Below, piece after piece: positions 1,756 to 61,402 of a stretch of 64,000 nt of DNA (the stretch's first letter is position 1; each line of letters starts with the position of its first letter). The stretch is from the IMG/VR virus record IMGVR_UViG_3300014205_000187, positions 1-64,000 of that record; one strand, 5' to 3'. Both the position numbers and the translations under genes were made by a program. Source of the DNA: a virus. Taxonomy: Duplodnaviria > Caudoviricetes. The notes under the pieces were generated by a model that was not told where the DNA came from, ran no database searches, and saw only the letters and a program-made list of their open reading frames with translations.

Positions 1756-2994
1756 TTGCGAATCAGATTATCGACTATCAAACAGCTATCGAACAATGTC
1801 ACGTCAACCTACTTCCAGCAGGTGACTCTCGCCCTTATGCGATTGTATCTCAAAGACCCAGACACCGATTACAACAAATACATCGGGGGAACTCGACTGC
1901 TGGAGCAGTGCGTAAATCGCAGTGTTCTCCCCGTCATCAATGACATGCAGACTCTTTTAGAGAAAACATTTCCGAATGATCGTGTAATACACCTATACCT
2001 CCGAGGATGGGCTGCTCCTGAGCCATCACATTATCTTGTGTTGCATCGCAACTCCGAAACCAATCTTTTTGAAGTCAAGTGTAATAGGGTCTGTAGTCTC
2101 GCTGTAGGCGCACCACTGAAAAAAGACGGCATCTTAGTCGAATGGGACTCAGATGACCCCGTAATCGCAGCCACACAACGCCCCAAAGTCAAACGACTCT
2201 ATGGGGGCGGCTCAGGAACCGCACAGCTCCTAATCGACCTCACAACAAATATCGAAGTGCAGCGTGAACTATCTCTCGCCATCTATACACATTCGCTATA
2301 TGCCGACATCAACGAAATCTCCATCTGGCTGCCTCGCATGGGAAAAGTGGTCATAGCCCCAGGCACCATTCCCACCAAGCTCTACTGTGACCTTTATCCT
2401 TTCAAAATCGTCCGCACCCGGCCGTACGTCAAAACCATCACGAAACCAAACTGCATAGTCCGTGTCATCCCACGAAAACAAGGAGCCTTGGACTATGCGC
2501 TCGATGACATCATGCACATCGTTCCATCCGTAAAAAATCTCGAACCTTTCGACACCACGGACAAGGCATTCAGCAACTTCCTCACAACAACTCTCGAAAC
2601 ACGTTTGCTGCCTTACATCGGCGTCCAGATCAATAAAGCAGTCAACATATATGGGCTTGTCTACAACCAGGAAGACGACGAGTGTTATCCTGCTCTCATC
2701 GCTGAGAACAAGCAACCAGGAAATTGTGCGGCGATGCCTCTGGTCTCTTTACACAGTAACGAATCCTCTGGACACTTTATCCCTAACAACATCCTGGCTA
2801 AAATAATTCGTTACCACATGACCACTCTTGCCGAGAACAAAAAAGCAGCAAACCTGCGATACAAAGCATGTCGGAGACTGCTCGGATACTGTGGTTACAC
2901 TGAAAACTTCCACAAGGTTTTCGCTGACTGGAGAATGCCGTTGTCCAATGCCGAATTATCAATTCTAAGAAGTCAGGAAAGTATAGTAGACTAG
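1756..2994 (+). CDS. hypothetical protein, 412 aa
   Basis: Long ORF, GAGGT SD, directly behind a consensus promoter; no motif recognised. Confidence 0.8.
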   Translation: MRIRLSTIKQLSNNVTSTYFQQVTLALMRLYLKDPDTDYNKYIGGTRLLEQCVNRSVLPVINDMQTLLEKTFPNDRVIHLYLRGWAAPEPSHYLVLHRNSETNLFEVKCNRVCSLAVGAPLKKDGILVEWDSDDPVIAATQRPKVKRLYGGGSGTAQLLIDLTTNIEVQRELSLAIYTHSLYADINEISIWLPRMGKVVIAPGTIPTKLYCDLYPFKIVRTRPYVKTITKPNCIVRVIPRKQGALDYALDDIMHIVPSVKNLEPFDTTDKAFSNFLTTTLETRLLPYIGVQINKAVNIYGLVYNQEDDECYPALIAENKQPGNCAAMPLVSLHSNESSGHFIPNNILAKIIRYHMTTLAENKKAANLRYKACRRLLGYCGYTENFHKVFADWRMPLSNAELSILRSQESIVD

Positions 2995-3031
2995 ATGATT
3001 AACTAAAAAATCAATTAGACAGATAACCATC

Positions 3032-3283
3032 ATGAAACGACAATTCTATGGAAAATTGAAAACACGTCAAAGAGTCCAGTTGCCATGCTCTGTGGTGGAC
3101 TCTACCGGAGTAATTCACACTGAAATGGAAACAGCTAAGATCGTCAAAATCCAGGACGACATTGTATATCTCGAAGACTTCAAACCAAAGGTAAAACTCA
3201 ATAGATTTTTAGAATCGGACAACATTTTAAGGAGACAAATCGACACATGGAAAGACAATCAAATAAACAAATTAAAATCTTGA
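3032..3283 (+). CDS. hypothetical protein
   Basis: ORF in gene-dense run. Confidence 0.6.
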   Translation: MKRQFYGKLKTRQRVQLPCSVVDSTGVIHTEMETAKIVKIQDDIVYLEDFKPKVKLNRFLESDNILRRQIDTWKDNQINKLKS

Positions 3284-3948
3284 TAGATGGTGTATGGACA
3301 CTTGAAGATTTCACTATGGAGGACGTGAAAGCAGGTCAGACATTCAAGCTGGATGGTCAAGAATATGTAGCACTGGGAGATGGTTATATCGACAAAGGTG
3401 TACCGACTATTGACTGTCGAGCACCTTATCCTCAATTTGACGATGATACTTTGGATGGTTTTCAGCCAACACCGACTGACCAGATATGCACGAAATGTCG
3501 TGAGGTGGCTGATTGTCTTCACGATGAGACAGACTGTGAGCGTTGTGACCAGCCCTGGTGGTTCAGGACATCTCCAGAGTTCATGGAGTCCCGTATTGCG
3601 GCTCCAACGTCCGACGAGTCCTGGGACACTGTGTTCCTGAGTGTAGCTCGGTCAATTGCGAACTTGTCAAAGTGTGCGTCCAGGCAGTTTGGAGCCGTGA
3701 TCGTTAAAGACCGAAGAATCCTGTCAACCGGATTTAATGGCGCACCGACTCGAACAACTTTGTGTCAAAAACCCGAGGCGACATGTCCGAGACAGTTACT
3801 CGGAATGAAAAAGGTAGACCCGTTACATGATCAGGAAACGAAAGTTATCTCTCTCATAGGCACAGGTCGCGGCTGTTTTAATGACGGTAAGTATATCAGC
3901 ACAGTGCAGATGGAAGATTCCGTCTGGCATATCTTTGAGGTTGTATGA
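3247..3948 (+). pseudogene. chimeric, truncated dCMP deaminase
   Basis: SKCASRQFGAVIVKDRRILSTGFNGAP matches the dCMP deaminase N-half; the catalytic HAE and PCxxC motifs are absent and an unrelated tail follows. Confidence 0.65.
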
Positions 3949-4247
3949 TGGTTATTACATCTTACCTGACAGGGCTGCACCTGATTGAAAAGCTCGAACG
4001 TGAAGATGAGCAGTGGTCAAGCATGTATGTGCTGAGTCTCTCTGCTCACTGCAACTGTGGCGAAGGTGGTATGAACTTTAGCTGGGGTGAGCTGAAATAC
4101 TTTATGAAGACGCACTGCGCCGCAGGGCATAAGATCAAGCTCGACATATTGTTGAGGTTCCGAGCTGAAGTATGCCCTATGCGTGAATGTGACTCTGGAC
4201 CGGAGGAAATCCGTGATGCTGATGCACCTTGGATTGTCAGTCATTGA
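3945..4247 (+). CDS. hypothetical Cys-containing protein
   Basis: ATGA overlap with the upstream gene. Confidence 0.6.
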   Translation: MMVITSYLTGLHLIEKLEREDEQWSSMYVLSLSAHCNCGEGGMNFSWGELKYFMKTHCAAGHKIKLDILLRFRAEVCPMRECDSGPEEIRDADAPWIVSH

Positions 4248-4431
4248 CGCCGATTCGTTACAACGAACCAGACTCAGAGGCAGAGAAGCTCTGTCAGCTC
4301 TGAGACGAGACAAAATCGTTGATCTGAAGCACCAATTAGGCGTGGCTTTGAAAGAGATCAAGACCTTGCGCCAAGAGAATAAGAGGTTGAACGCATGTCT
4401 CACGAACCGAGACCGCACATCGGAGAAGTAA
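4183..4431 (+). CDS. hypothetical coiled-coil protein
   Basis: LKHQLGVALKEIKTLRQENKRL heptads; start uncertain. Confidence 0.5.
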   Translation: MNVTLDRRKSVMLMHLGLSVIDADSLQRTRLRGREALSALRRDKIVDLKHQLGVALKEIKTLRQENKRLNACLTNRDRTSEK

Positions 4432-4628
4432 TATCTCAAGCGATGGCGAATCATAACTGGACGCCGGGTGAGGTGGCTAAATACTTCAGAGTGGACATCG
4501 AAGAAGTCATGCGCTGGATGCATGGCACACAGAAACCCAAGCGCGATCATTGTAAATTACTGGCAAATATACTTCAGATAGGATTCGGGGATATATGGTT
4601 TGCTGAGATTCGTTATGGGAGTCTGTGA
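4395..4628 (+). CDS. XRE-family HTH protein
   Basis: WTPGEVAKYFRVDIEEVMRWMHGTQKP...LANILQI. Confidence 0.75.
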   Translation: MSHEPRPHIGEVISQAMANHNWTPGEVAKYFRVDIEEVMRWMHGTQKPKRDHCKLLANILQIGFGDIWFAEIRYGSL

Positions 4629-5262
4629 GCATGTGACCACGGGAACTAAGGTCTTAGGGCCGGTGAGCATTGTCTACTATGAGGCGGTTCAAAACTACTG
4701 CACCGACCCGTATCCCGGCCACAAGGATGGCTGTCCTAATTTCGATCATCGAAAAGGGTGTCCTCCACATGCGAAGTACTTCCCGGACGTATTTTGTCCT
4801 GACGGCTGTTATCTCGCAGTCATGGATATTTTGTTCTGTGAGTATTTGAGTCTGTTTAAGAAGCAGCATCCTACTTGGACAGATAGACAACTTCGTAATC
4901 CATTATACTGGCAGAATTATTTCAGGACCCGGTTCAAAGCGTGGGCCGAGTCCCAGGTTCCAGATGGATATAAGTGTATTTTTGTGCCAGAAGCAATGGG
5001 CGTGGATGTAGATACTACGTGTAAGGACGCTGGTATCACGCTTGAGTGGCCTCCTGATACCCATGTCTACATGGTGGCCGTGTATGCAATGACCTGGGAT
5101 GCTTCTGTTAAGCACGATCTCGCTGAGTTGGACGTTATTGACGGCCAGGTATCTCAGGCGAATAAGAACAAGACTCTCAAGGTTATTGGAACCGAGGGAG
5201 CTGCGATTGTCGATCTAGCTGTGAAAGAGTTTGCTAGAACAGAGTTGGGGATTCAAAAATGA
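4615..5262 (+). CDS. DUF2284-like metal-binding protein
   Basis: C...GCPNF...CPPH and PEAMGVDV motifs. Confidence 0.65.
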   Translation: MGVCEHVTTGTKVLGPVSIVYYEAVQNYCTDPYPGHKDGCPNFDHRKGCPPHAKYFPDVFCPDGCYLAVMDILFCEYLSLFKKQHPTWTDRQLRNPLYWQNYFRTRFKAWAESQVPDGYKCIFVPEAMGVDVDTTCKDAGITLEWPPDTHVYMVAVYAMTWDASVKHDLAELDVIDGQVSQANKNKTLKVIGTEGAAIVDLAVKEFARTELGIQK

Positions 5263-5594
5263 AATGGTGGAAAAGATTTTGTAAGAGGAAGCTATTTGAC
5301 CCTAAAACAGCTACCGGAACTGATATGGCTATGTGGGCCACTTATGCAAACTTAGGGTATATGCACGTTTACTGGGATAGGTTACGTATACAACGAGTAG
5401 CATGGATGGATAGACCTTTGGAGTCTAAGGAAGTCCGTGTTTGGTGGGATGATAAATTGGTTTTTGAGTGGAGCATGTTCGGAGGCACAGCAACTCAAAA
5501 GCCTGGAATATGGTGTCTCAGACTGTATCGTATATATCTTTTGGCACGAAGAACGTGGGATAAAGAGCATTTCTCACCTTTGGAGGAAACATAA
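5259..5594 (+). CDS. hypothetical Trp-rich protein
   Basis: Overlapping start/stop with both neighbours. Confidence 0.6.
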   Translation: MKWWKRFCKRKLFDPKTATGTDMAMWATYANLGYMHVYWDRLRIQRVAWMDRPLESKEVRVWWDDKLVFEWSMFGGTATQKPGIWCLRLYRIYLLARRTWDKEHFSPLEET

Positions 5595-5932
5595 TGGGCG
5601 TTGTATTTTGTGACATAGACGGCGTGATCTTCAAGCACCCAGGTCGATGGGATGATATAGCTAATCGGACACCTGAGTTGATAGTCAGCTCACGAGAGTA
5701 TCTGCAAAGGCACCAGGCAGCCGGGGATACGATAGTCCTGGCGACATCCCGACCGGACAGCTTTCGGAGATTTACAGAGCGTGAACTTCAAAGAGTAGGA
5801 ATACCCTATCATCATCTTCTCATGGGAATGAATCCTGGAACCAGGGTGCTCATCAATGATCGTAAGAACGGTCAATGCAGAGCCGTTGCTATCGATGTAG
5901 AGCGAGATGCAGGGCTGAATGGCTATGATTGA
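5594..5932 (+). CDS. small HAD-superfamily phosphatase
   Basis: FCDIDGVI motif I, ATSR motif II, RVLIND; paralog of 19318-19671. Confidence 0.8.
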   Translation: MGVVFCDIDGVIFKHPGRWDDIANRTPELIVSSREYLQRHQAAGDTIVLATSRPDSFRRFTERELQRVGIPYHHLLMGMNPGTRVLINDRKNGQCRAVAIDVERDAGLNGYD

Positions 5933-6004
5933 AAATAGGTATTTATAACAGTAGCTTATTCTGACATGAAGAGCTATACTATGTTAGTAAGGTAATTAAC
6001 TAGA

Positions 6005-6475
6005 ATGAAAACTCAGGCAAAGTATTTCAAATACGTCATGATGCACCGATGGTATGCGTTCATTGGTTGTGTGAAAATGGGACTGTGGTGGCAAGGAATC
6101 ATTCACGATTTAAGCAAGCTCTCAAAAGCTGAATGGATGCCTTACTTGCACTGGTTCCATACACCACAGGGCATCAAGTTTAAGGGTGAGTCTTTTACTC
6201 ATACAAGGTATAAAGAAGAGTTCGATAAGGCGTGGCTCCATCACCTGCATACAAATCCTCACCACTGGCAGTTTTGGATTATGCCGGACTCTCAAGTAAT
6301 CTTAGCTATGCCGGAGAAGTATGTGAAAGAGATGGTTGCTGACTGGTCCGCTGCTGGCCGAGCACAAGGTCACGGAGACGATTTGATGGCGTGGTATGAG
6401 AGAAACAAAGATATGATGAAACTCCATCCTGAGACCATCCAGCTTGTTGAGGCTTTGGTTTATGCCCCAAGGTGA
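6005..6475 (+). CDS. DUF5662-like HD-fold protein
   Basis: IHDLSK, AWLHHLHTNPHHWQFW, EMVADW. Confidence 0.75.
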   Translation: MKTQAKYFKYVMMHRWYAFIGCVKMGLWWQGIIHDLSKLSKAEWMPYLHWFHTPQGIKFKGESFTHTRYKEEFDKAWLHHLHTNPHHWQFWIMPDSQVILAMPEKYVKEMVADWSAAGRAQGHGDDLMAWYERNKDMMKLHPETIQLVEALVYAPR

Positions 6476-52090: not shown

Positions 52091-52513
52091 GTGCGAACAG
52101 CTATTCTGCCAGCAAAAGCTATGATACTGGCGCGTGGCAAGTTTCAGGCATTCGAGCTGGAGCCTGGAGACCTCATACAAGCGTATGACTATAATGCTCG
52201 GCGTCCAGTAATGGCAGCAATATCGACAAATACCCCAGTCGAACCCGTCAAAAAGATTCTGGCTCCGGTGCTTCAGTTCAAAATCATACCATTTTCGCTG
52301 GTAACAAAAGCTCTGACTCCACAAGGAGAAAAGAGTCTGGCTGACGGTGCTCGACAGTTCATCGGATACTGCAACAGTAATCCTACCAAACTGCTTATAC
52401 GCACGATAGACGCTCTTATAGAGTATGATGAAATGGTAGATGCTGTACAATTAATGTGGGAATGGCCGCAATATATCTGGGTCGAAGGAATCTTAGTTGG
52501 GATTGACGCATGA
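52091..52513 (+). CDS. stand-alone degenerate Hint (intein-like) domain protein
   Basis: ELEPGDLIQAYD, ALTPQG and YIWVEGILV follow Hint blocks, but catalytic residues are absent. Confidence 0.55.
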   Translation: MRTAILPAKAMILARGKFQAFELEPGDLIQAYDYNARRPVMAAISTNTPVEPVKKILAPVLQFKIIPFSLVTKALTPQGEKSLADGARQFIGYCNSNPTKLLIRTIDALIEYDEMVDAVQLMWEWPQYIWVEGILVGIDA

Positions 52514-54108
52514 CGCACGACATAATAAATCAACTAACTGCCATATATATTCGTGACCCTGACGAAGGCGAAGCCATAGCCAGAGAGTTCGGACTCTGGG
52601 AATCTTTATACGAGAGTGTGTTTAAGCCTCTTCTACGGCAAGTATGTTACGAAGACGTAAATCGCTTCATCGAGTATATTTTCGTAGACCCTGAAACTCG
52701 TGGAGCTGTTGAACAGCAAGACTTTCACGAAGAGTGGCAGCAACTCATTACTGACCACGATAGAGTTTTAATCGCTGCTCCCAGAGGTCATGGAAAGTCC
52801 TATCAAAACATTGGTAGAGCTATATGGGAGCTTGGCCGCAATCATAACCTGAGAATTAAAATCCTTGGTTCAGGTGACGATAAAGCCAAAGAAATCCTCG
52901 GTCTCATCCGAGAGAACATCGCAAAAAACCCCAAAGTTCAAGAGATATTTCCTACTTTACAAATTGATGTTGCCAGAGGAGATACTCAGACCAAGTTCTT
53001 CGTGGTGCGCGACATCATGCAAAGAGACGCCTCGGTCGAAGCCTCTGGTGTTCTATCGGCTGGTGCTGGTGGTCGTGCAGACTTACTTATCTGCGACGAC
53101 GTTGTAGACCTCAAAAACTCCGTTATCAATCCGGTTCTGCGCGAACAAGTCATCAACGCTGTCAAAGAGACCTGGTTCTCTCTGGTATCTGCTTCAGGTA
53201 AAATTGTCTGGATATGCACACCTTACCACGTTGCCGATGCCAGTCATAATCTCAGAGACACTGGAGTATTCAAAGTTTGGTGGACTCCAGCTATCACAAT
53301 CACTCGACATTTTGATGATGACGGCAATGAGATCATCGATGAAGAGACTCAACAGCCAAAAGTCACAAAGACTATCCTGTGGCCGGACAAATGGAGTGAA
53401 GAAAAACTCAAAAAACGTGAACAGGAAGTCGGTTCGAGAGTTTTTGCCCGACAGTATCTTCTCAATGCAATGTCGGACGATGAACGCACATTCCCTGAAG
53501 TCTCCCTGGAAAAGAGTTTTGATCGAACGAGACGTTACATTGGCGAAGATATTGACCCTGAATGGCCTACTTTTGGTGGCGTAGATTTGGCTTCAGCTCT
53601 GGGTAAAAAGAATGCCTGGACAGTTATCTGGACTCTGGCAAGAAGTCCTCATGACAATCGATTATATCTAAAAAATCTGTATCGAAAACGAATGAAGTTC
53701 CCGGAAATAATGAGGACTTTGAAAGAACAATATCTGGAACAGCACTGGCAGCTTTGTCTTGTGGAAAACAATCAATTCCAGCAAGCTGTTATCGACGCCG
53801 CCGAAGAAGTCGATAAATCAATACCTATCGAATCGTTCACCACGGGCATCAATAAAGCTAACGAGTTAGTTGGATTACCAGGTATGGCAGTAGCTTTTGA
53901 GAAATCTCAGTTTGCGATACCTGCGGCTTTATTTCCATTGGACCCTGACGATACATCACCTCTTGCTATTTTGATGAATGAACTTCGGACACATCCAGGA
54001 GGAGAGTTCAGTGATACTGTTATGGCTCTTTGGTTTGCTTGGATAGCAGCCCAAAGAAGCAGTGGTGACTTTGAGGACGCCTATATGGAAGCTGTAAAGT
54101 CTATATAG
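52510..54108 (+). CDS. terL: terminase large subunit
   Basis: APRGHGKS, LLICDD, GVDLA, VENNQFQ, DTVMALWFA. Confidence 0.92.
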   Translation: MTHDIINQLTAIYIRDPDEGEAIAREFGLWESLYESVFKPLLRQVCYEDVNRFIEYIFVDPETRGAVEQQDFHEEWQQLITDHDRVLIAAPRGHGKSYQNIGRAIWELGRNHNLRIKILGSGDDKAKEILGLIRENIAKNPKVQEIFPTLQIDVARGDTQTKFFVVRDIMQRDASVEASGVLSAGAGGRADLLICDDVVDLKNSVINPVLREQVINAVKETWFSLVSASGKIVWICTPYHVADASHNLRDTGVFKVWWTPAITITRHFDDDGNEIIDEETQQPKVTKTILWPDKWSEEKLKKREQEVGSRVFARQYLLNAMSDDERTFPEVSLEKSFDRTRRYIGEDIDPEWPTFGGVDLASALGKKNAWTVIWTLARSPHDNRLYLKNLYRKRMKFPEIMRTLKEQYLEQHWQLCLVENNQFQQAVIDAAEEVDKSIPIESFTTGINKANELVGLPGMAVAFEKSQFAIPAALFPLDPDDTSPLAILMNELRTHPGGEFSDTVMALWFAWIAAQRSSGDFEDAYMEAVKSI

Positions 54109-54173: not shown

Positions 54174-55943
54174 ATGGCTACTCCAATTGGAACATACGCA
54201 AGTTCGACAGGCAAAGATGATCTCATAAGTGCGCCTTTCTGGGCTAAAAAGCTCGGTAGAACATTCAAGGCTCTCTTTAACCCAGATTCCCCTACAGCTA
54301 TGCACCCTGCCTCTGAACCTCGTGACTCTCTGGTCATGACAGGTTTGACCAATGCAGATTCTCTAGCTTCTATGGCTAATGCCTGGAGAGTCCATCAAAC
54401 TCGAAAATCTGTCTATCAGGACATCGAACGGATGGATTCTGAAGATGAGATGGTGGCAACAGCTCTCGATATTATAGCCGACTGTTCTGTATCTTATACC
54501 GATACCAGCGGATTCCACTTCAAGATTCGATCTGATGATGCTGAAACTCAAAAAGTACTCCACGCTCTCGAAAAAAGACTCGATCTGCACAATGAGATTT
54601 GGCAAATATGCAGAGATATGGTGAAGAATGGTAACGATTTCCGAGAAGTGGTCATAGATAGACAGACAATGAAGATCGTTGCGTTCAAACAGACCATCTC
54701 TTATCAGATATACCCTAAAACCAACAAACGTGGAGATAAGCTGCCTGGCTGGGTAGTCAAAGAAGACGGCGACATCTACATGTCCAACGGCAAAGAATTG
54801 GAGCTTGAGGAGTGGCAGATTTGTCCATTCATCTTCGGTTCCAAAAAAGGTTTCCTGGCATCCCCACCTCTTGCGGCTGCTCGTAGAAACTGGATTCGTC
54901 TGACAAAGATGGAAGATGGTATGGCTGTAGCTCGACTTATCAGAGCTTACGACAAAATGGTTCACAGGATTCCGGTCAAGCCCGAAATGCCTGTAACCGA
55001 CATCATGAATCGAATCAGGATGTATAAAGACAGCATCAGCAAGAGGAGAATCCTCGACAGCGATGGTATGATGACGCAGGTTGACAATAACCTGGACGTT
55101 CAAACAGACTTTTATCTGCCGGATGACGGCTCCGGTCGAGGTGGAGTCGATCTACTCTCAGCAAATAACACTCAGCTTGGAAACTTGAATGACATTATTT
55201 ATCATCGAGAAAAACTCCTCACCCGTCTTCAGGTTCCTATCGCATATTTGCAGATCACCACGGCTCAGAAAACTCACATAGCTTCTGGAGCATCGTCTCA
55301 GAAAGCCGATGTAGAGATTCAATTTGCTCGTATGCTTCGACGTGTACAGCGTCAACTTCTCAAAGGAATCCATCGACTTTGTGATCTGGAATTGATGCTC
55401 AATGGTATTACTCCTGAGCGTGGTAGCTACAAAATCGAAGTCACTGAGATCAATACTGTAGACCTCAAAAAAGATGCCGACATTGAACTCACTTATGCTC
55501 AGGCAGCCGTGTTCTTCGTGGAAGCGTTCGGAGCACTACCTCCTGAACTCATCGCTGAAAAGTTCATGCATCTTGATAACGATCAGCAAAAACTTCTGGA
55601 TACATTCCTGAAAACCAGCGGTGCCAGACTCACAGAGGCCAAGATTAAAGGGGCTGAAGCTGCTGGACAGCCTAAACCTGCTCCTGGGTCTGATGCTCTA
55701 CCGAAAAAAGGCACTGGAAACTCTACAAAAAATAGAGCAGCCAGGAGTGGAGAACAAAAAGGCACCAAACAAAGTATCCCTCTGGAAGCCTTTGTTGACG
55801 TTATGTATGATCTCGCTGAGGGCATAAATGAAGACTTCAGAAATCAAGGCATAGAAGTCCCTGAGTTGGACGAAAGCCATAGGAATGTGATTCGAGCAAA
55901 CCTGGCCTCCATAATTCAACGCGATAATTTGGTTCTTGAGTAA
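54174..55943 (+). CDS. portal protein, T4 gp20-like
   Basis: ALDIIAD, MEDGMAVARLIRA, DFYLP..G.G, DIIY...L...LQVP, FAR..RVQ. Confidence 0.85.
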   Translation: MATPIGTYASSTGKDDLISAPFWAKKLGRTFKALFNPDSPTAMHPASEPRDSLVMTGLTNADSLASMANAWRVHQTRKSVYQDIERMDSEDEMVATALDIIADCSVSYTDTSGFHFKIRSDDAETQKVLHALEKRLDLHNEIWQICRDMVKNGNDFREVVIDRQTMKIVAFKQTISYQIYPKTNKRGDKLPGWVVKEDGDIYMSNGKELELEEWQICPFIFGSKKGFLASPPLAAARRNWIRLTKMEDGMAVARLIRAYDKMVHRIPVKPEMPVTDIMNRIRMYKDSISKRRILDSDGMMTQVDNNLDVQTDFYLPDDGSGRGGVDLLSANNTQLGNLNDIIYHREKLLTRLQVPIAYLQITTAQKTHIASGASSQKADVEIQFARMLRRVQRQLLKGIHRLCDLELMLNGITPERGSYKIEVTEINTVDLKKDADIELTYAQAAVFFVEAFGALPPELIAEKFMHLDNDQQKLLDTFLKTSGARLTEAKIKGAEAAGQPKPAPGSDALPKKGTGNSTKNRAARSGEQKGTKQSIPLEAFVDVMYDLAEGINEDFRNQGIEVPELDESHRNVIRANLASIIQRDNLVLE

Positions 55944-56705
55944 ATGATTGAGATTATCAACGGTGACTGCGTGGCCGAGATGGAAAAACTCGGCAAACAA
56001 TCTGTCAATTGCATAGTCACATCTCCCCCTTACAACTTCGACATCAACTATAATGAATACGATGATGGCATGCCCCGAGACAAATACTTAGACTGGCTCG
56101 TAGACGTGGCTCATTCGATGCACAAGGTCTTAACCAAGGATGGCAGCATCTTTCTAAACGTAGGATTCAAACCCACAGACCCCTGGTTGCCTTATGATGT
56201 CTTAAATGTGTTTAGACGCACGTTCTACGCTCAGAACCAGTTCATCTGGGCCAAAAGTGCCTATGTTCCTCAAGCCAAGAAAACCTATGGACATTTTCGT
56301 CCACTCAACTCTCCACGATTCGTTAATCGATGCTGGGAGTTTGTTTTCCATCTCACCAGAACCTCTGATGTCGTTCTTGATCGATTGGCTTTAGGAGTTC
56401 CTTACGAAGATAAAAGCAACAAGCGTCGTTGGAGTAATCCTGATGATCTTCGATGTCGAGGAGATGTATGGTTCATTCCTTATGAGACAAAACAGAAAAA
56501 GGGTAAACATCCGGCAACATTCCCGCCGAAGTTGGCGATGTATGCTTATGCTCTACATGGTCTTGACCGAATAGAGCTTGCGATGGACCCGTTTGTTGGA
56601 GAAGGAAATAGTGCTGTGGCCGCTAAAAAATTGGACTTGAACTTTGTTGGTATCGACATCGACTCTTTATACTGTGAAATAGCGAGAAAAGCTGTAAAAG
56701 GCTGA
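55944..56705 (+). CDS. beta-class amino DNA methyltransferase (probably N4-cytosine)
   Basis: TSPPYN, HPATFP, DPFVGEG. Confidence 0.9.
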   Translation: MIEIINGDCVAEMEKLGKQSVNCIVTSPPYNFDINYNEYDDGMPRDKYLDWLVDVAHSMHKVLTKDGSIFLNVGFKPTDPWLPYDVLNVFRRTFYAQNQFIWAKSAYVPQAKKTYGHFRPLNSPRFVNRCWEFVFHLTRTSDVVLDRLALGVPYEDKSNKRRWSNPDDLRCRGDVWFIPYETKQKKGKHPATFPPKLAMYAYALHGLDRIELAMDPFVGEGNSAVAAKKLDLNFVGIDIDSLYCEIARKAVKG

Positions 56706-56754
56706 TAAAGAATACGCCCCTTCCTCATCAGCCTTTTACATCGTCACCAACCAA

Positions 56755-56844
56755 TTATGTTATTACGAGTTTGTACTTACTGATAAAATAGGTGATTAGG
56801 ACACCTACCACAAATCCTACTGCACCAGCTCCCAGATAATACAT
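56755..56844 (-). CDS. 29-aa single-pass membrane peptide
   Basis: GAGGTG SD, TGCTATAAT promoter, MYYLGAGAVGFVVGVLITYFISKYKLVIT*. Confidence 0.7.
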   Translation of the reverse strand: MYYLGAGAVGFVVGVLITYFISKYKLVIT

Positions 56845-56921
56845 GATGCTCACCTCAAGCACATTATAGCACATTCAATAAAAAACACATCAGTAGTAAT
56901 ACCTGTTTTGTCTGAAATGGG

Positions 56922-56950
56922 TTGACAGTTAATTATCTATCCATTATACT
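56922..56950 (+). promoter_or_regulatory. consensus sigma70-type promoter
   Basis: TTGACA-17bp-TATACT. Confidence 0.8.
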
Positions 56951-56989
56951 GAAAATGTAGAACAGACATCTAACTAGGAGGCAACAAAA

Positions 56990-58021
56990 ATGAAAAGCAG
57001 AGTCGAATCACAGTTCGTTCAGCACGGAGATATTGGAGCCGTTTATGGCGGCACCATCGTTGATAACTCTTTGAGCATCGATGAAGCTCTCAAAGAATCT
57101 GGTCTCGACTGGGAAGTCGGTGTCGATAGAGTCAGAATGGCAAAGAAAACAGGTGGCAAGGTTATTCCTGGATTCTTCGCCACGTATCGAATGGACACCG
57201 GAGACCCGCTCGGAATTGTTAAGACACGATACAATCCGGTGCAGAATCGTGATGCCTTTGCATGGTTGAGATACATTATCGGTGTAGACGGAGCCTGCGT
57301 CACATCTGCCGGTGCGCTGCACAAAGGCCGATACACTTGGGTCTGTATAGACCTTGGTGGATTTGATGTCTTGCCTGAAGACGCTGTTCGGAAACGCATG
57401 CTGATTCTCAACTCACATGATGGTTCCTCGAATATCCTGGTGCAGCTCCTTCCTCATAGGATAGCTTGCCAGAACATTTTGAACTTCTCGTATGGAGTCA
57501 AAAAAGGTGACGGAGACGAAAACTATGGAGGCGGCAGCGACCCATTCAAGATTCGTCACACTGGCACAGCGATGATTAAGCTGTCTGAAATCCAGCGAGT
57601 CATCGGGGTAGCCAATACAAACTTCGATAGAGTTCAGGCATCTTTCGAGGCATTCAAATCTACTACTGTCACTCCAGAACAAAACGATGCTATCATCTAT
57701 GCCGCTCTGGGAGTGACAGACGAAGATCGAAACCTGTACAATGCCGGGGAGTTTGAGAAGACTCCTCAGTGGGTCAATCACTTCGGTCTTATCAACGATG
57801 TCATCGAAAAAGGCCCCGGCTCTGACATCAAAGGTGTCCGAGGAACGGTCTGGGGAGCATTCAACGGCATCAACAGCTACTTCGATCATATCCGAACTGT
57901 CAGAGGTTCTGAGAAGAATCCTGACAACGCCATCGAAAGCAAGTTGATGGGTCACTCGGCGAAAATGAAGGTCAAAGCATTCGATGCCTGTCTCAACGCC
58001 GTCGAGATTCTCAAAAATTAA
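56990..58021 (+). CDS. DUF932 protein
   Basis: GLDWEV, YNPVQN, NSHDGS, RIACQN, IRHT, GTVWGAFN. Confidence 0.9.
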   Translation: MKSRVESQFVQHGDIGAVYGGTIVDNSLSIDEALKESGLDWEVGVDRVRMAKKTGGKVIPGFFATYRMDTGDPLGIVKTRYNPVQNRDAFAWLRYIIGVDGACVTSAGALHKGRYTWVCIDLGGFDVLPEDAVRKRMLILNSHDGSSNILVQLLPHRIACQNILNFSYGVKKGDGDENYGGGSDPFKIRHTGTAMIKLSEIQRVIGVANTNFDRVQASFEAFKSTTVTPEQNDAIIYAALGVTDEDRNLYNAGEFEKTPQWVNHFGLINDVIEKGPGSDIKGVRGTVWGAFNGINSYFDHIRTVRGSEKNPDNAIESKLMGHSAKMKVKAFDACLNAVEILKN

Positions 58022-58176: not shown

Positions 58177-61100
58177 ATGGCGAGACTCCTTGCAAAACCG
58201 AAGTCCCGGCTTTTGGTCACTCAAGTGGCTAAGAGAAAGGATGTAAGTCCTGATACGGGAGAAAAGAAATACGGTGATGTCAAGTTCGCTGACCCGACGA
58301 ACAGTAAGTATCCGATAGACACTAAAGAACATGCAAAAGCGGCCTGGAGTTACATCAACAAGTCTAAAAACGCTGCTAAATACAGCGCGTCAGACTTGAA
58401 GGGAATCAAAAGTCGCATTAAGACCGCTTGCAAAAAGTTTGGTGTTGAAATCTCTGCGGACGAACAGGCAGTCTTCGAGCATGACCCGATGATGGAAGTG
58501 ACTCAGAGCCACTACTACATCGATGGAAGCTATGAAGACCACTGCTCCAAAATCTCGGCAGCTTTCAAGCAGTGGCGTAGGATGGAAGAGTATTGGGATT
58601 ATAGGTGGGCCAATATCCTTGGTATTACCGATACCTCGATCTACTTCTACACTACCGACTGGGATTCCACAGAGCCGGAATACTTCGAGATTGGCTACTC
58701 TGTTGAAGGTTCAAAAGTAGTCATAAACGGTGAAGTCCAACGGGTCGATGTAAAACTCATGGTTGACACTCTGGCTGTGCCTGATGACGATGATGAGTCG
58801 AGCATACAAGGGGACGACACACAAACCGGAGAGGAGCAGAAACCGATGGAAACAAAACAGGATACAGTGCCCGATGAGTCGGCCATCACTGATGCTGCGG
58901 TTGCGGCCCCTGCTCAAATTGGCAGTCCTGCGCCGAGTGGAACTGGCAAGAAAACCGATGCTGAGACCAAAGGTTCTTCCGTGGAAGACCCTGCCGCCGA
59001 TGCTAACAGCAATAAACCGGCAGATCACAGTGACGGTGAGGGGGCCAGCGAAGAGGCTGCCGATGGCAGCAGCAAAACTGCCGTGAAAGAAGCACTCGAT
59101 ACAACGGCACCGGGTTACAAGGGTGAACCGGCTGGCACCGATGGAACTCCTGAACCTTACGCTGGTCAGTCTGACAAGCGAGAAGCTCAACAGGGTGTTC
59201 CTTACGATCAGGCCGGACAGTCGATGTGCTACATCCAGAAAGTCGAAAAGACTACTGGAGCTGATGGCAAAACCCTCATGAAAATGCAGGGTATCGCCAC
59301 CAGAGGCGACATCGTAAACAAGGTAGGCCAGGTCTACCCGTTGAGCGTTTGGGAGAAGAATCTCCCTGAGATGAACAAGCAGGCTGCGAACGGCAAGTTC
59401 ATCGGAAAGCTCGAACACCCAGAAATGGAACAAGGCTTGGTAGATACCGCTATCAAGTTTGACCGATTTTACCTCCAGGGAAGTGACGTGTGGTTCGAGG
59501 CTACCGTCGTTCCCACGGAACCTCACGGTAAAAACCTCCAAGCTCTGCTCGAAGCTGGAGTTCAGGTTGACATGTCCACTCGTGGATATGGCACGTTCGC
59601 AATGCAAGATTGGCGTGGCACCGAGCGGCCCGTCATGCAAGATGACTTCGTTTGCACAGCTATCGACGCTGTGTGGCACGGAGCATCTTCCGGCTCTGGC
59701 GTGAAGTCCACTTCTTACCAGAGCGACCCTAATCTCGAAAAAGGAGAGCAAAAACCAGTGGAAACCAAAGACACCACCACTCAATCCGATGTTCAGGTAA
59801 AGGCTGCTGCAATCAGAGCCAGTGCCGAACTCAAACAGACTAGGGCCGCTCTTCTGGGCGATGCCGGTCTGAACGAACTGGGAATGAAGGCTTACCAGAC
59901 TGCACTTGATAAGTGCGATAGTCTGGAAAACCTCATCGTTACCAGTGAGACGCTGCTTCCGCACCTTCAGGCTACATTCCCTGCGGCCACAGGTGACGCT
60001 CAGGAAGTGACCCAGAGCGCAACTTACAGTCCTACATTCTTCAAAAAGCAGAATCAGGAAGAGGCTGCTCCGCAGAACGTGGGCGAATTGCTTGACCGTA
60101 TGGTAGCCGATCTGCCGGACCATTACGAAGGTCAAGCCGTCAATCCCAATTTGCCGAGCCACTTCAGCTCCCCTCGGGCAGCGTGTAAGAGGCTCATGGT
60201 CAATATCGCACGGGAACAGCAAGGTTCATTCTCCGGTCGCAACGCCGCTCTCGGCCTCTTGGCTCTTGAGCAGGGCAAGATTGACCGGGCGCAGGATATT
60301 CTCTTGCAAAGCCTCGCAACCGGCGCAACCATCGCTGATGGAAACGCTGATGGTGGTGGTGCTCCTTTGAGCAACTACCTCATCTTCCCGTTGGTCAGAC
60401 GTGTATTCCCCATGTATATCATGGGTATGATCGCTAGCATCCAGCCGCTCGACAGGCCGGAAGGTAAGATTTTCTTCCTCGATCAGTACCGTGTAGACGG
60501 TTCTGCTAACGAGACAAGAATCGACCTGAACACTTCGAGCAATCCGTTCAATTCTTCGTTTGCTGACAACGCCACTGAAGGTTCGGCGGCTATGCAGATG
60601 AGACTCCGCTTGACGAGTGCCCTGGTTCAGGCGCATACCAAGAAATTGGGCGCGTCCTGGTCACTCGAAGAAATGCAGGATTTGAGAGCCTACCACGGTC
60701 TCGATGCTGCACAGGAGCTTCTCGGAGGCGTCGCTCGTGAGATGGCTTTGGAGTGGAACAAGGAAGTCCTGGACGACATGCTGGCTCAGGCTACAGCGTC
60801 CGCTTTGACCTTCGGAACTACCATTCCGGCTACTGGGTTTACTCAGCAGAAGGATTGGGACGAGTATCTGTGGGTCTACCTCAACAAGCTCGATTCGGCC
60901 ATTTTCTCAAAGAGAAATGGGGCTATGACTCACATCATAGCTGGCGTCGATGCTGCTCTCGCAATGAGCAAGTCCATGCGCGGCGTCTTTACGTTCAACG
61001 CCAACGATGATGGCGTTGATGGAGAGATTTATCCGGGAACCACGTTCTACGGAACAGTCTCTATCCCTGGTGCTGGTAAGTATAAAGTTCTGAGAACGAA

Positions 61101-61341
61101 CTTCTGGTCTACCGGCACGACAAACGGCTCGAAGATTCTTGGTCTCCGCAAGGGTGCCGAGTGGTCTGATACGCCGTACATCTGGGCACCATACACCGAC
61201 TATGTGACTCCGATGCTTACTGACCCGGCTGACTTCAGCCAGAAGCAGGGCATCATCAGCAGAGCCGCAAAGAAGGTCGTGGTCGCAGACGCGATGGGGA
61301 CCATCACCGTCAACAGCGGCGTGGGCGAGCTTGTCAGCTAA
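58177..61341 (+). CDS. head polyprotein: DUF6582-like + prohead protease (gp21-like) + scaffold + major capsid protein (gp23-like)
   Basis: KYPIDTKEHAKAAWSYIN; GKLEHP, STRGYG; FPLVRRVFP, IQPLDRPEGKIFFL, WSLEEMQDLRAYHGLDA, YIWAPY. Confidence 0.9.
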   Translation: MARLLAKPKSRLLVTQVAKRKDVSPDTGEKKYGDVKFADPTNSKYPIDTKEHAKAAWSYINKSKNAAKYSASDLKGIKSRIKTACKKFGVEISADEQAVFEHDPMMEVTQSHYYIDGSYEDHCSKISAAFKQWRRMEEYWDYRWANILGITDTSIYFYTTDWDSTEPEYFEIGYSVEGSKVVINGEVQRVDVKLMVDTLAVPDDDDESSIQGDDTQTGEEQKPMETKQDTVPDESAITDAAVAAPAQIGSPAPSGTGKKTDAETKGSSVEDPAADANSNKPADHSDGEGASEEAADGSSKTAVKEALDTTAPGYKGEPAGTDGTPEPYAGQSDKREAQQGVPYDQAGQSMCYIQKVEKTTGADGKTLMKMQGIATRGDIVNKVGQVYPLSVWEKNLPEMNKQAANGKFIGKLEHPEMEQGLVDTAIKFDRFYLQGSDVWFEATVVPTEPHGKNLQALLEAGVQVDMSTRGYGTFAMQDWRGTERPVMQDDFVCTAIDAVWHGASSGSGVKSTSYQSDPNLEKGEQKPVETKDTTTQSDVQVKAAAIRASAELKQTRAALLGDAGLNELGMKAYQTALDKCDSLENLIVTSETLLPHLQATFPAATGDAQEVTQSATYSPTFFKKQNQEEAAPQNVGELLDRMVADLPDHYEGQAVNPNLPSHFSSPRAACKRLMVNIAREQQGSFSGRNAALGLLALEQGKIDRAQDILLQSLATGATIADGNADGGGAPLSNYLIFPLVRRVFPMYIMGMIASIQPLDRPEGKIFFLDQYRVDGSANETRIDLNTSSNPFNSSFADNATEGSAAMQMRLRLTSALVQAHTKKLGASWSLEEMQDLRAYHGLDAAQELLGGVAREMALEWNKEVLDDMLAQATASALTFGTTIPATGFTQQKDWDEYLWVYLNKLDSAIFSKRNGAMTHIIAGVDAALAMSKSMRGVFTFNANDDGVDGEIYPGTTFYGTVSIPGAGKYKVLRTNFWSTGTTNGSKILGLRKGAEWSDTPYIWAPYTDYVTPMLTDPADFSQKQGIISRAAKKVVVADAMGTITVNSGVGELVS

Positions 61342-61370
61342 TCCTCGCGGGTCATATCGCTAAAGAAAAA

Positions 61371-61402
61371 GGCTCCCTGGAAACAGGGGGTCTTTTCTTT
61401 TT
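61371..61402 (+). terminator. intrinsic terminator after capsid gene
   Basis: GGCTCCCTG-GAAA-CAGGGGGTC then T-tract. Confidence 0.85.

Follow-up and report, generated by a model that had tools for sequence, protein, structure and literature searches.

A single plus-strand gene at positions 58177 to 61341 of the stretch analyzed here probably works as a nested, C-coterminal head-assembly gene, in which one mRNA and one reading frame would yield three proteins. The stretch (the window) is the first 64,000 nucleotides (nt) of IMG/VR record IMGVR_UViG_3300014205_000187, from a virus of the class Caudoviricetes, and the record that holds it is a complete virus genome of 106,380 bp with direct terminal repeats. 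The gene is one stop-free frame of 1,054 amino acids (aa) in the list of open reading frames (ORFs) and in its translation. Along it are arranged small N-terminal modules, a T4 gp21-type prohead protease, scaffold-like helices, and a gp23-type major capsid protein (MCP). Two in-frame internal starts, an ATG at 58846 and a GTG at 59758, each with its own Shine-Dalgarno (SD) sequence, lie in the linkers before and after the protease and would add products of 831 and 527 aa to the full-length one. A first-pass annotation had proposed this arrangement from the letters of the window, and the uninterrupted frame, the domain assignments, both internal starts with their peptides, and the lengths of 1,054, 831, and 527 aa were all borne out.

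Domains of the polyprotein and conservation of the fusion

The first ATG of the frame, at 58177, is preceded at about 10 nt by a GAGGT motif, with an SD duplex of -9.1 kcal/mol. Domains were assigned from Pfam, from Foldseek matching to the T4 gp21 structure 5JBL, and from an AlphaFold2 (AF2) model of the full-length protein built on a 60-sequence alignment; all of the features below are on the plus strand. The protein opens with a helical DUF6582 module (58222 to 58458, aa 16 to 94; Pfam E value 5.8e-33), which AF2 places at aa 40 to 100, and a small alpha+beta domain, a cystatin/NTF2-like cone (58510 to 58761, aa 112 to 195; AF2 predicted local distance difference test [pLDDT] of ~90), that is present in all fused relatives. 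An acidic disordered linker (58765 to 59172, aa 197 to 332; pLDDT below 50), variable and indel-rich in the alignment, holds the first internal start at M224. The S77 protease domain follows (59179 to 59691, aa 335 to 505; modeled at aa 335 to 500 with a pLDDT of ~90), and then a second disordered linker (aa 503 to 538) with the second internal start at V528. Three long helices (aa 539 to 562, 567 to 578, and 583 to 600; pLDDT of ~90) make up a segment resembling a delta-domain scaffold (59791 to 59976, aa 539 to 600). After a short disordered stretch (aa 606 to 625) come a conserved helical pro-region or N-arm seen in both the alignment and the model (60052 to 60360, aa 626 to 728) and the gp23-type capsid core (60361 to 61338, aa 729 to 1054).

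The protease assignment is supported by sequence and by fold. Pfam places Peptidase_S77 (PF03420) at aa 355 to 505 (E value 2.8e-12, 47 bits against a cutoff of 27; 51.2 bits in the genome-wide search). The modeled domain superposes on T4 gp21 (5JBL) with a Foldseek E value of 3.4e-10, a target-normalized template modeling (TM) score of 0.80, and a root mean square deviation of 3.3 over 172 columns, and a profile of 21 protease segments matches 5JBL with an E value of 1.6e-11. All 21 representatives of the fused proteins have H414 and S467; in the 60-sequence set S467 is invariant and H414 is nearly so. These two residues, which we take to be the catalytic His and Ser, line up with two Ala residues of the 5JBL chain (GELNAP and VASRG), a crystal construct in which the catalytic residues are mutated. 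By comparison with that inactivated construct, the protease of this gene looks active.

The capsid part is clear at the sequence level, with Gp23 (PF07068) at aa 796 to 1036 (E value 3.4e-30, 106 bits against a cutoff of 24.4) and phmmer matches to solved T4 gp23 (5VF3, 6UZC, and 8GMO) at E values of ~3e-11. Foldseek lists the T4 gp23/gp24, P1, and S6 capsids with a probability of 1.0 but TM scores of only 0.25 to 0.34, which are low because the query was the whole 1,054-aa model with its low-confidence loops. The PHROGs labels of the ORF, head maturation protease and major head protein, agree with both assignments. Pfam and NCBIfam returned S77 and Gp23 only, with no match to an HK97-family S78/U35 protease or PF05065 capsid, and NCBIfam contains no model matching the whole protein as a named family.

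The fusion is conserved well beyond the window. A search of 5.8 billion proteins gave ~68 protein clusters, at 43 to 81% identity, that keep S77 and Gp23 in one protein of ~930 to 1,090 aa, many of them from contigs of 100 to 115 kb. IMG/VR yielded 28 loci where the ORF is fused, some of them from a distant clade at 35 to 43% identity, and 8 further loci with separate genes. Stops between the domains in relatives had been named beforehand as the observation to look for, and there were none: in all 28 fused loci and the ~68 clusters the frame stays open across linkers rich in substitutions and indels. Such openness across variable linkers argues that selection maintains read-through products. 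Among the isolated phages in INPHARED the fusion was not found by tblastn, and the best matches were cyanomyoviruses with separate gp21, gp22, and gp23. The clade that carries the T4-type fusion is uncultivated and known only from metagenomes.

The N-terminal module is interchangeable, being DUF6582 in the clade of the window, ChaB in the distant clade (at the N termini of L022, L024, and L026), and absent in others. In one relative (P0031) DUF6582 is internal and follows the alpha+beta domain (aa 165 to 226). DUF6582 is also found outside the T4-type fusions: in the unrelated fusion P0078 it is flanked by an S78 protease and an HK97-type capsid, and a DUF6582 fusion of the HK97 type is present at 3001 to 6201 of locus L038. 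Interchangeable N-terminal modules would fit cargo delivered by a capsid subunit. The region of the cone (aa 100 to 200, 58474 to 58776), modeled alone, gave a pLDDT of 85 and the same cystatin/NTF2-like fold. Its VIA Z score of 8.3 was to a designed protein, which marks the fold as generic, and weak matches in BFVD were to N-terminal parts of uncultured-phage proteins labeled prohead protease. The cone may represent an accessory or inhibitory pro-domain that recurs among head proteases.

Internal starts and alternative readings

For the internal starts, the ORFs of the window and of the 28 loci were aligned and reduced to 21 representatives below 90% identity. The second start (59741 to 59760) consists of the SD sequence AAGGAGAG (59741 to 59748), a spacer, and the GTG at 59758 that would begin the 527-aa scaffold and capsid product. 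At this position the codon is GTG in 15 and ATG in 6 of the 21 representatives, and never GTA, GTC, or GTT. GTG makes up 27% of the Val codons in the same ORFs, so that 15 such choices would have a probability of 0.273^15, or ~3e-9, if codon choices were independent. GTG and ATG switch even among near relatives (L022 versus L024). The 18 nt upstream form a strong duplex with the anti-SD sequence (-7.7 to -11.2 kcal/mol) in 19 of the 21, with a median that ranks among the strongest 2% of the in-frame positions in its own ORF, and the RNA from -20 to +20 is among the 5% least structured. All 13 Gly codons found at -18 to -4 are GGA, against a background of 20%. The peptide encoded over the SD differs by lineage (GEQ, QGD, QGA, EGE, KES, EEE, or EEH), and yet the GGAG core is retained. 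A constant GGA choice and a constant GGAG under a varying peptide point to a constraint on the RNA, not on the protein.

The first start (58828 to 58848) has the SD sequence GGAGAGGAG (58828 to 58836; SD strength -8.3), a 9-nt spacer, and the ATG at 58846 of the 831-aa product. Its codon is ATG in 16 representatives and GTG in 3, a strong SD is present in 13 of 19, and the site is conserved within the clade at 50% identity or more. Upstream of it, 22 of 25 Glu codons are GAG, against a background of 56%. Both starts fall inside linkers that AF2 models as disordered, exactly at domain borders. A start codon with an upstream SD core, a combination that occupies 0.67% of in-frame codons in the fused ORFs, recurs only at alignment positions 224 and 528 (in 12 to 14 of the 21 representatives). 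The SD strength of both sites is similar to that of the real genes of the window (median -6.0, against a background of -2.7). Conservation of the two motifs had been set as a further check on relatives, and it is found at the second site in essentially all lineages and at the first site in most, with the most distant clade as the exception.

Several observations weigh against the use of these starts. In that most distant clade (L020 and L022 to L026) the first site is without a clear SD, and L020 and L025 have an SD at neither site, which means that initiation, if it occurs there, must take another route. At the second site the spacing from GGAG to the start, 8 to 11 nt, is near the upper limit of functional spacings, and the codon preferred at what should be the source of the most abundant product is GTG rather than ATG. 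The representatives are moreover related, and hence the quoted probabilities are not strictly independent. As a separate observation, L020 and L025 keep ATG at both sites behind an upstream region that is A-rich and unstructured, and their hosts may not use SD-led initiation.

The alternative that survives best, though we regard it as unlikely, is that only the full-length polyprotein is made, so that each capsid subunit begins with a protease and N-terminal modules of its own, that proteolysis alone produces all of the mature parts, and that the SD-like motifs are translational pause sites at domain borders or relics of former gene starts. The frame is indeed open throughout in every relative, and the protease-scaffold-capsid fusions of small actinophages, which are of the HK97 type, are annotated as single products. 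Release of each domain could occur at Q339, Q515-S516, and Q613-S614 (nt ~59191, 59719 to 59724, and 60013 to 60018), Gln-Ser/Gly pairs, invariant or nearly so, that flank the protease and precede the body of the capsid protein within linkers that are hypervariable apart from them. However, a pause site needs no start codon 8 to 11 nt downstream, and here that codon is always GTG or ATG and switches between the two. Relic starts would have been erased from linkers that, among lineages at 35 to 80% identity, are otherwise saturated with substitutions and indels, and the open local RNA at the sites is typical of real starts. An HSV-like (herpes simplex virus) internal promoter for the short products was also considered and dropped, as no sigma70-like promoter is present within the 1,054-aa ORF.

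Far less probable is a reading in which the repeated peptide G-E-(E)-Q-K-P-M/V-E-T-K is itself the signal, a site of protease recognition or cleavage, and its likeness to an SD and start is incidental. The first-pass annotation had described the two cassettes as near-identical duplicates, and in the window phage they are: GEEQKP-METKQDT at the first site and GEQKP-VETKDT at the second agree at 9 of 17 residues, and the nucleotide changes between them are all synonymous. The T4 gp21 protease cuts after Glu, at (L/I)-x-E motifs, and a Glu follows the M or V at both sites. As a conserved property, however, the duplication does not stand, for in the relatives the two peptides are unrelated and share only 1 to 6 of 17 residues. 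Just behind the start, E, D, K, A, Q, N, and G all occur, and the upstream peptide varies too, while the GGAG core and the choice of GGA or GAG are kept, and the conserved residues of the linkers are Gln-Ser pairs elsewhere and not the repeated peptide. We therefore rejected the cleavage-site reading, because the peptide is not conserved; the conserved trait is an SD and a start in each linker rather than a duplicated cassette.

That the frame is an assembly or sequencing artifact, or a recently decayed locus with lost stops, was raised since gp21, gp22, and gp23 are as a rule separate genes in T4-like phages. Nothing was found in its favor, and it can be set aside almost entirely. The same architecture occurs in dozens of independent metagenome assemblies, which stem from different samples and sources, several of them on contigs of 100 to 115 kb. 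A genome-wide profile search matched the Gp23 family and S77 nowhere in the 106,380 bp except in the 58177 to 61341 ORF, leaving no other capsid or protease gene.

Proposed assembly scheme and genomic setting

Under the nested-gene reading that we prefer, initiation at 58177 would give the 1,054-aa protein with the small N-terminal modules, protease, scaffold helices, and capsid protein. Initiation at the ATG at 58846 would give protease, scaffold, and capsid in 831 aa, and the GTG at 59758 would give scaffold helices and capsid in 527 aa, approximately the size of T4 gp23. Most of the shell would be built from the shortest product, whose N-terminal helices would serve as a built-in scaffold like the delta domain of HK97. 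The two longer forms should co-assemble with it as rare capsid subunits because the whole scaffold-capsid part is common to all three products, and their N-terminal extensions would face the interior of the shell. In this way they would bring a limited dose of S77 protease, and possibly cargo modules, into the shell, much as lambda gpC and HSV UL26 enter by way of scaffold sequence common with Nu3 and UL26.5. Once the shell is assembled, the protease would cleave within the linkers, so that the mature capsid protein loses all that precedes it. The linkers showed conserved Gln-Ser pairs and no conserved x-E motif; Q339, Q515-S516, and Q613-S614 are candidate sites for cleavage after Gln. From conservation we infer the use of both internal starts and the ratio of the products; the inward topology and the places of cleavage are likewise putative.

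A stronger version of this scheme can be offered only tentatively, and we would give it somewhat less than an even chance. It would be a self-dosing T4-type head program, in which three starts of set strength make cargo-bearing, protease-bearing, and scaffold-only capsid subunits, the DUF6582 and ChaB modules being the cargo, and in which initiation rates alone fix the cargo load, the protease dose, and the stoichiometry of the shell.

One relative in which the genes are split bears on the origin of the fusion. On L031, a 153-kb contig, the protease and capsid genes are separate (2980 to 4548 and 4610 to 6109). The capsid motif FPLVRRV is at residue 208 of the 527-aa product of the window phage and at residue 79 of the L031 capsid protein, so the former has ~130 extra N-terminal residues, which are helical, and the three long helices at aa 539 to 600 have no counterpart in the standalone capsid gene. 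That fits a built-in scaffold like the delta domain. The L031 protease gene encodes 522 aa with a long helical C-terminal extension, and residue 176, immediately behind the protease domain, is an ATG with an SD. Here a T4-type phage may have a nested scaffold gene of the lambda kind. The fused gene may go back to an ancestor whose protease/scaffold gene was nested as in lambda and was joined to the capsid gene afterward, an origin for which this one GC-rich sequence is only suggestive.

Around the gene, the large terminase (52510 to 54108) and a T4-like portal (54174 to 55943) lie upstream. The usual portal-protease-capsid order is broken by an N6/N4 DNA methyltransferase gene and a DUF932 gene (55944 to 58021), which separate the portal from the head gene. 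Directly 3' of the ORF, on the same strand, is a hairpin with a T run that resembles an intrinsic terminator (61367 to 61396). Pfam and PHROGs scans detected no gp22-like gene adjoining the 1,054-aa ORF, and the Gp23-family search gave no gp24-like paralog in the 106,380-bp genome.

Relation to known head-assembly genes

The I/Z genes of phage Mu follow a nested scheme, and gpC of phage lambda is a protease of the S49 type. Nested protease/scaffold genes are described for lambda (C/Nu3), for HSV-1 (UL26/UL26.5), and for the archaeal virus HFTV1 (gp17/gp17.5), in the last case with ribosome profiling. The internal start of lambda C/Nu3, with its SD, is credited to Shaw and Murialdo (1980) in a paper that cites them. 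The gene described here is similar to lambda C/Nu3 in having an in-frame start with an SD just after the protease domain, as far as can be read from the sequence, and in the proposal of an abundant short C-coterminal product and a rarer full-length form that carries the protease into the procapsid. Unlike in lambda, there are two nested starts and three products, the protease is of the S77 (T4 gp21) type, and the C-terminal part common to the products runs on into the major capsid protein. The protease would therefore be attached to a subunit of the shell itself instead of a free scaffold.

A second precedent comes from small actinophages of the HK97 type, in which protease, scaffold, and capsid are in one gene (PMC7302621). 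Such fusions occur in clusters EE, AN, AX, FE, CW, DM, EL, AU, and AW, and RefSeq names them "prohead protease/major capsid protein fusion protein." They resemble the gene of the window in joining a maturation protease, a scaffold, and a capsid subunit in one ORF. They are built from Peptidase_S78/U35 and PF05065, however, mostly in siphovirus genomes of 15 to 58 kb, whereas here S77 and gp23 are combined with a T4-like portal in a genome of 106 kb. By its domain content, the gene appears to work like the actinophage fusion type but outside that lineage. A fusion in a preprint on the cyclic-oligonucleotide-based antiphage signaling system (CBASS) was rejected as a precedent, being a fusion of protease and scaffold and not of capsid, and papers on XM1 and on bacteriophage assembly offered no further precedent.

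Likeness to two further systems completes the comparison. HK97 gp5 with its delta domain, and T5 pb8, have as their scaffold a helical extension at the N terminus of the capsid protein, and the helices at aa 539 to 600 fit that pattern. In HK97 gp5 and T5 pb8 the protease removes the delta domain, and removal of the helices here is a proposal by analogy. In HK97 the protease is a separate gene, and the capsid here is of the gp23 family. The T4 head module supplies homologs of the protease and the capsid (gp21 and gp23) and a similar portal. In T4, as the first-pass annotation had noted, gp21, gp22, and gp23 are separate genes, and they are separate in all of the isolated relatives found as well.

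Because protease, scaffold, and capsid in a single gene are already known in actinophages, the concept itself is not a new kind. What appears to be new, from the sequences compared, is its realization with T4-type proteins, the extension of the nest through the capsid protein, and the presence of two nested starts. We found no literature description of a T4-type (S77, gp21-gp23) or DUF6582/PF20223 fusion, nor of conserved internal starts in protease-capsid fusions, in searches of a library with few subscription journals. The HK97-type DUF6582 fusion of L038, a single GC-rich sequence, has no convincing equivalent internal start.

The gene would bring three textbook solutions to head assembly together in one frame: the nesting of lambda, the scaffold-capsid fusion of HK97, and the protease and capsid folds of T4. 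The known fusions leave the question of how a phage avoids filling its shell with hundreds of proteases, and conserved internal initiation is the answer proposed here. If internal MCP starts should prove general in HK97-type fusions also, they would be a common and overlooked rule for protease-capsid fusion genes. Should the gene prove able to form procapsids by itself, it would amount to a one-gene container system of the T4 type, compact and already equipped for cargo loading.

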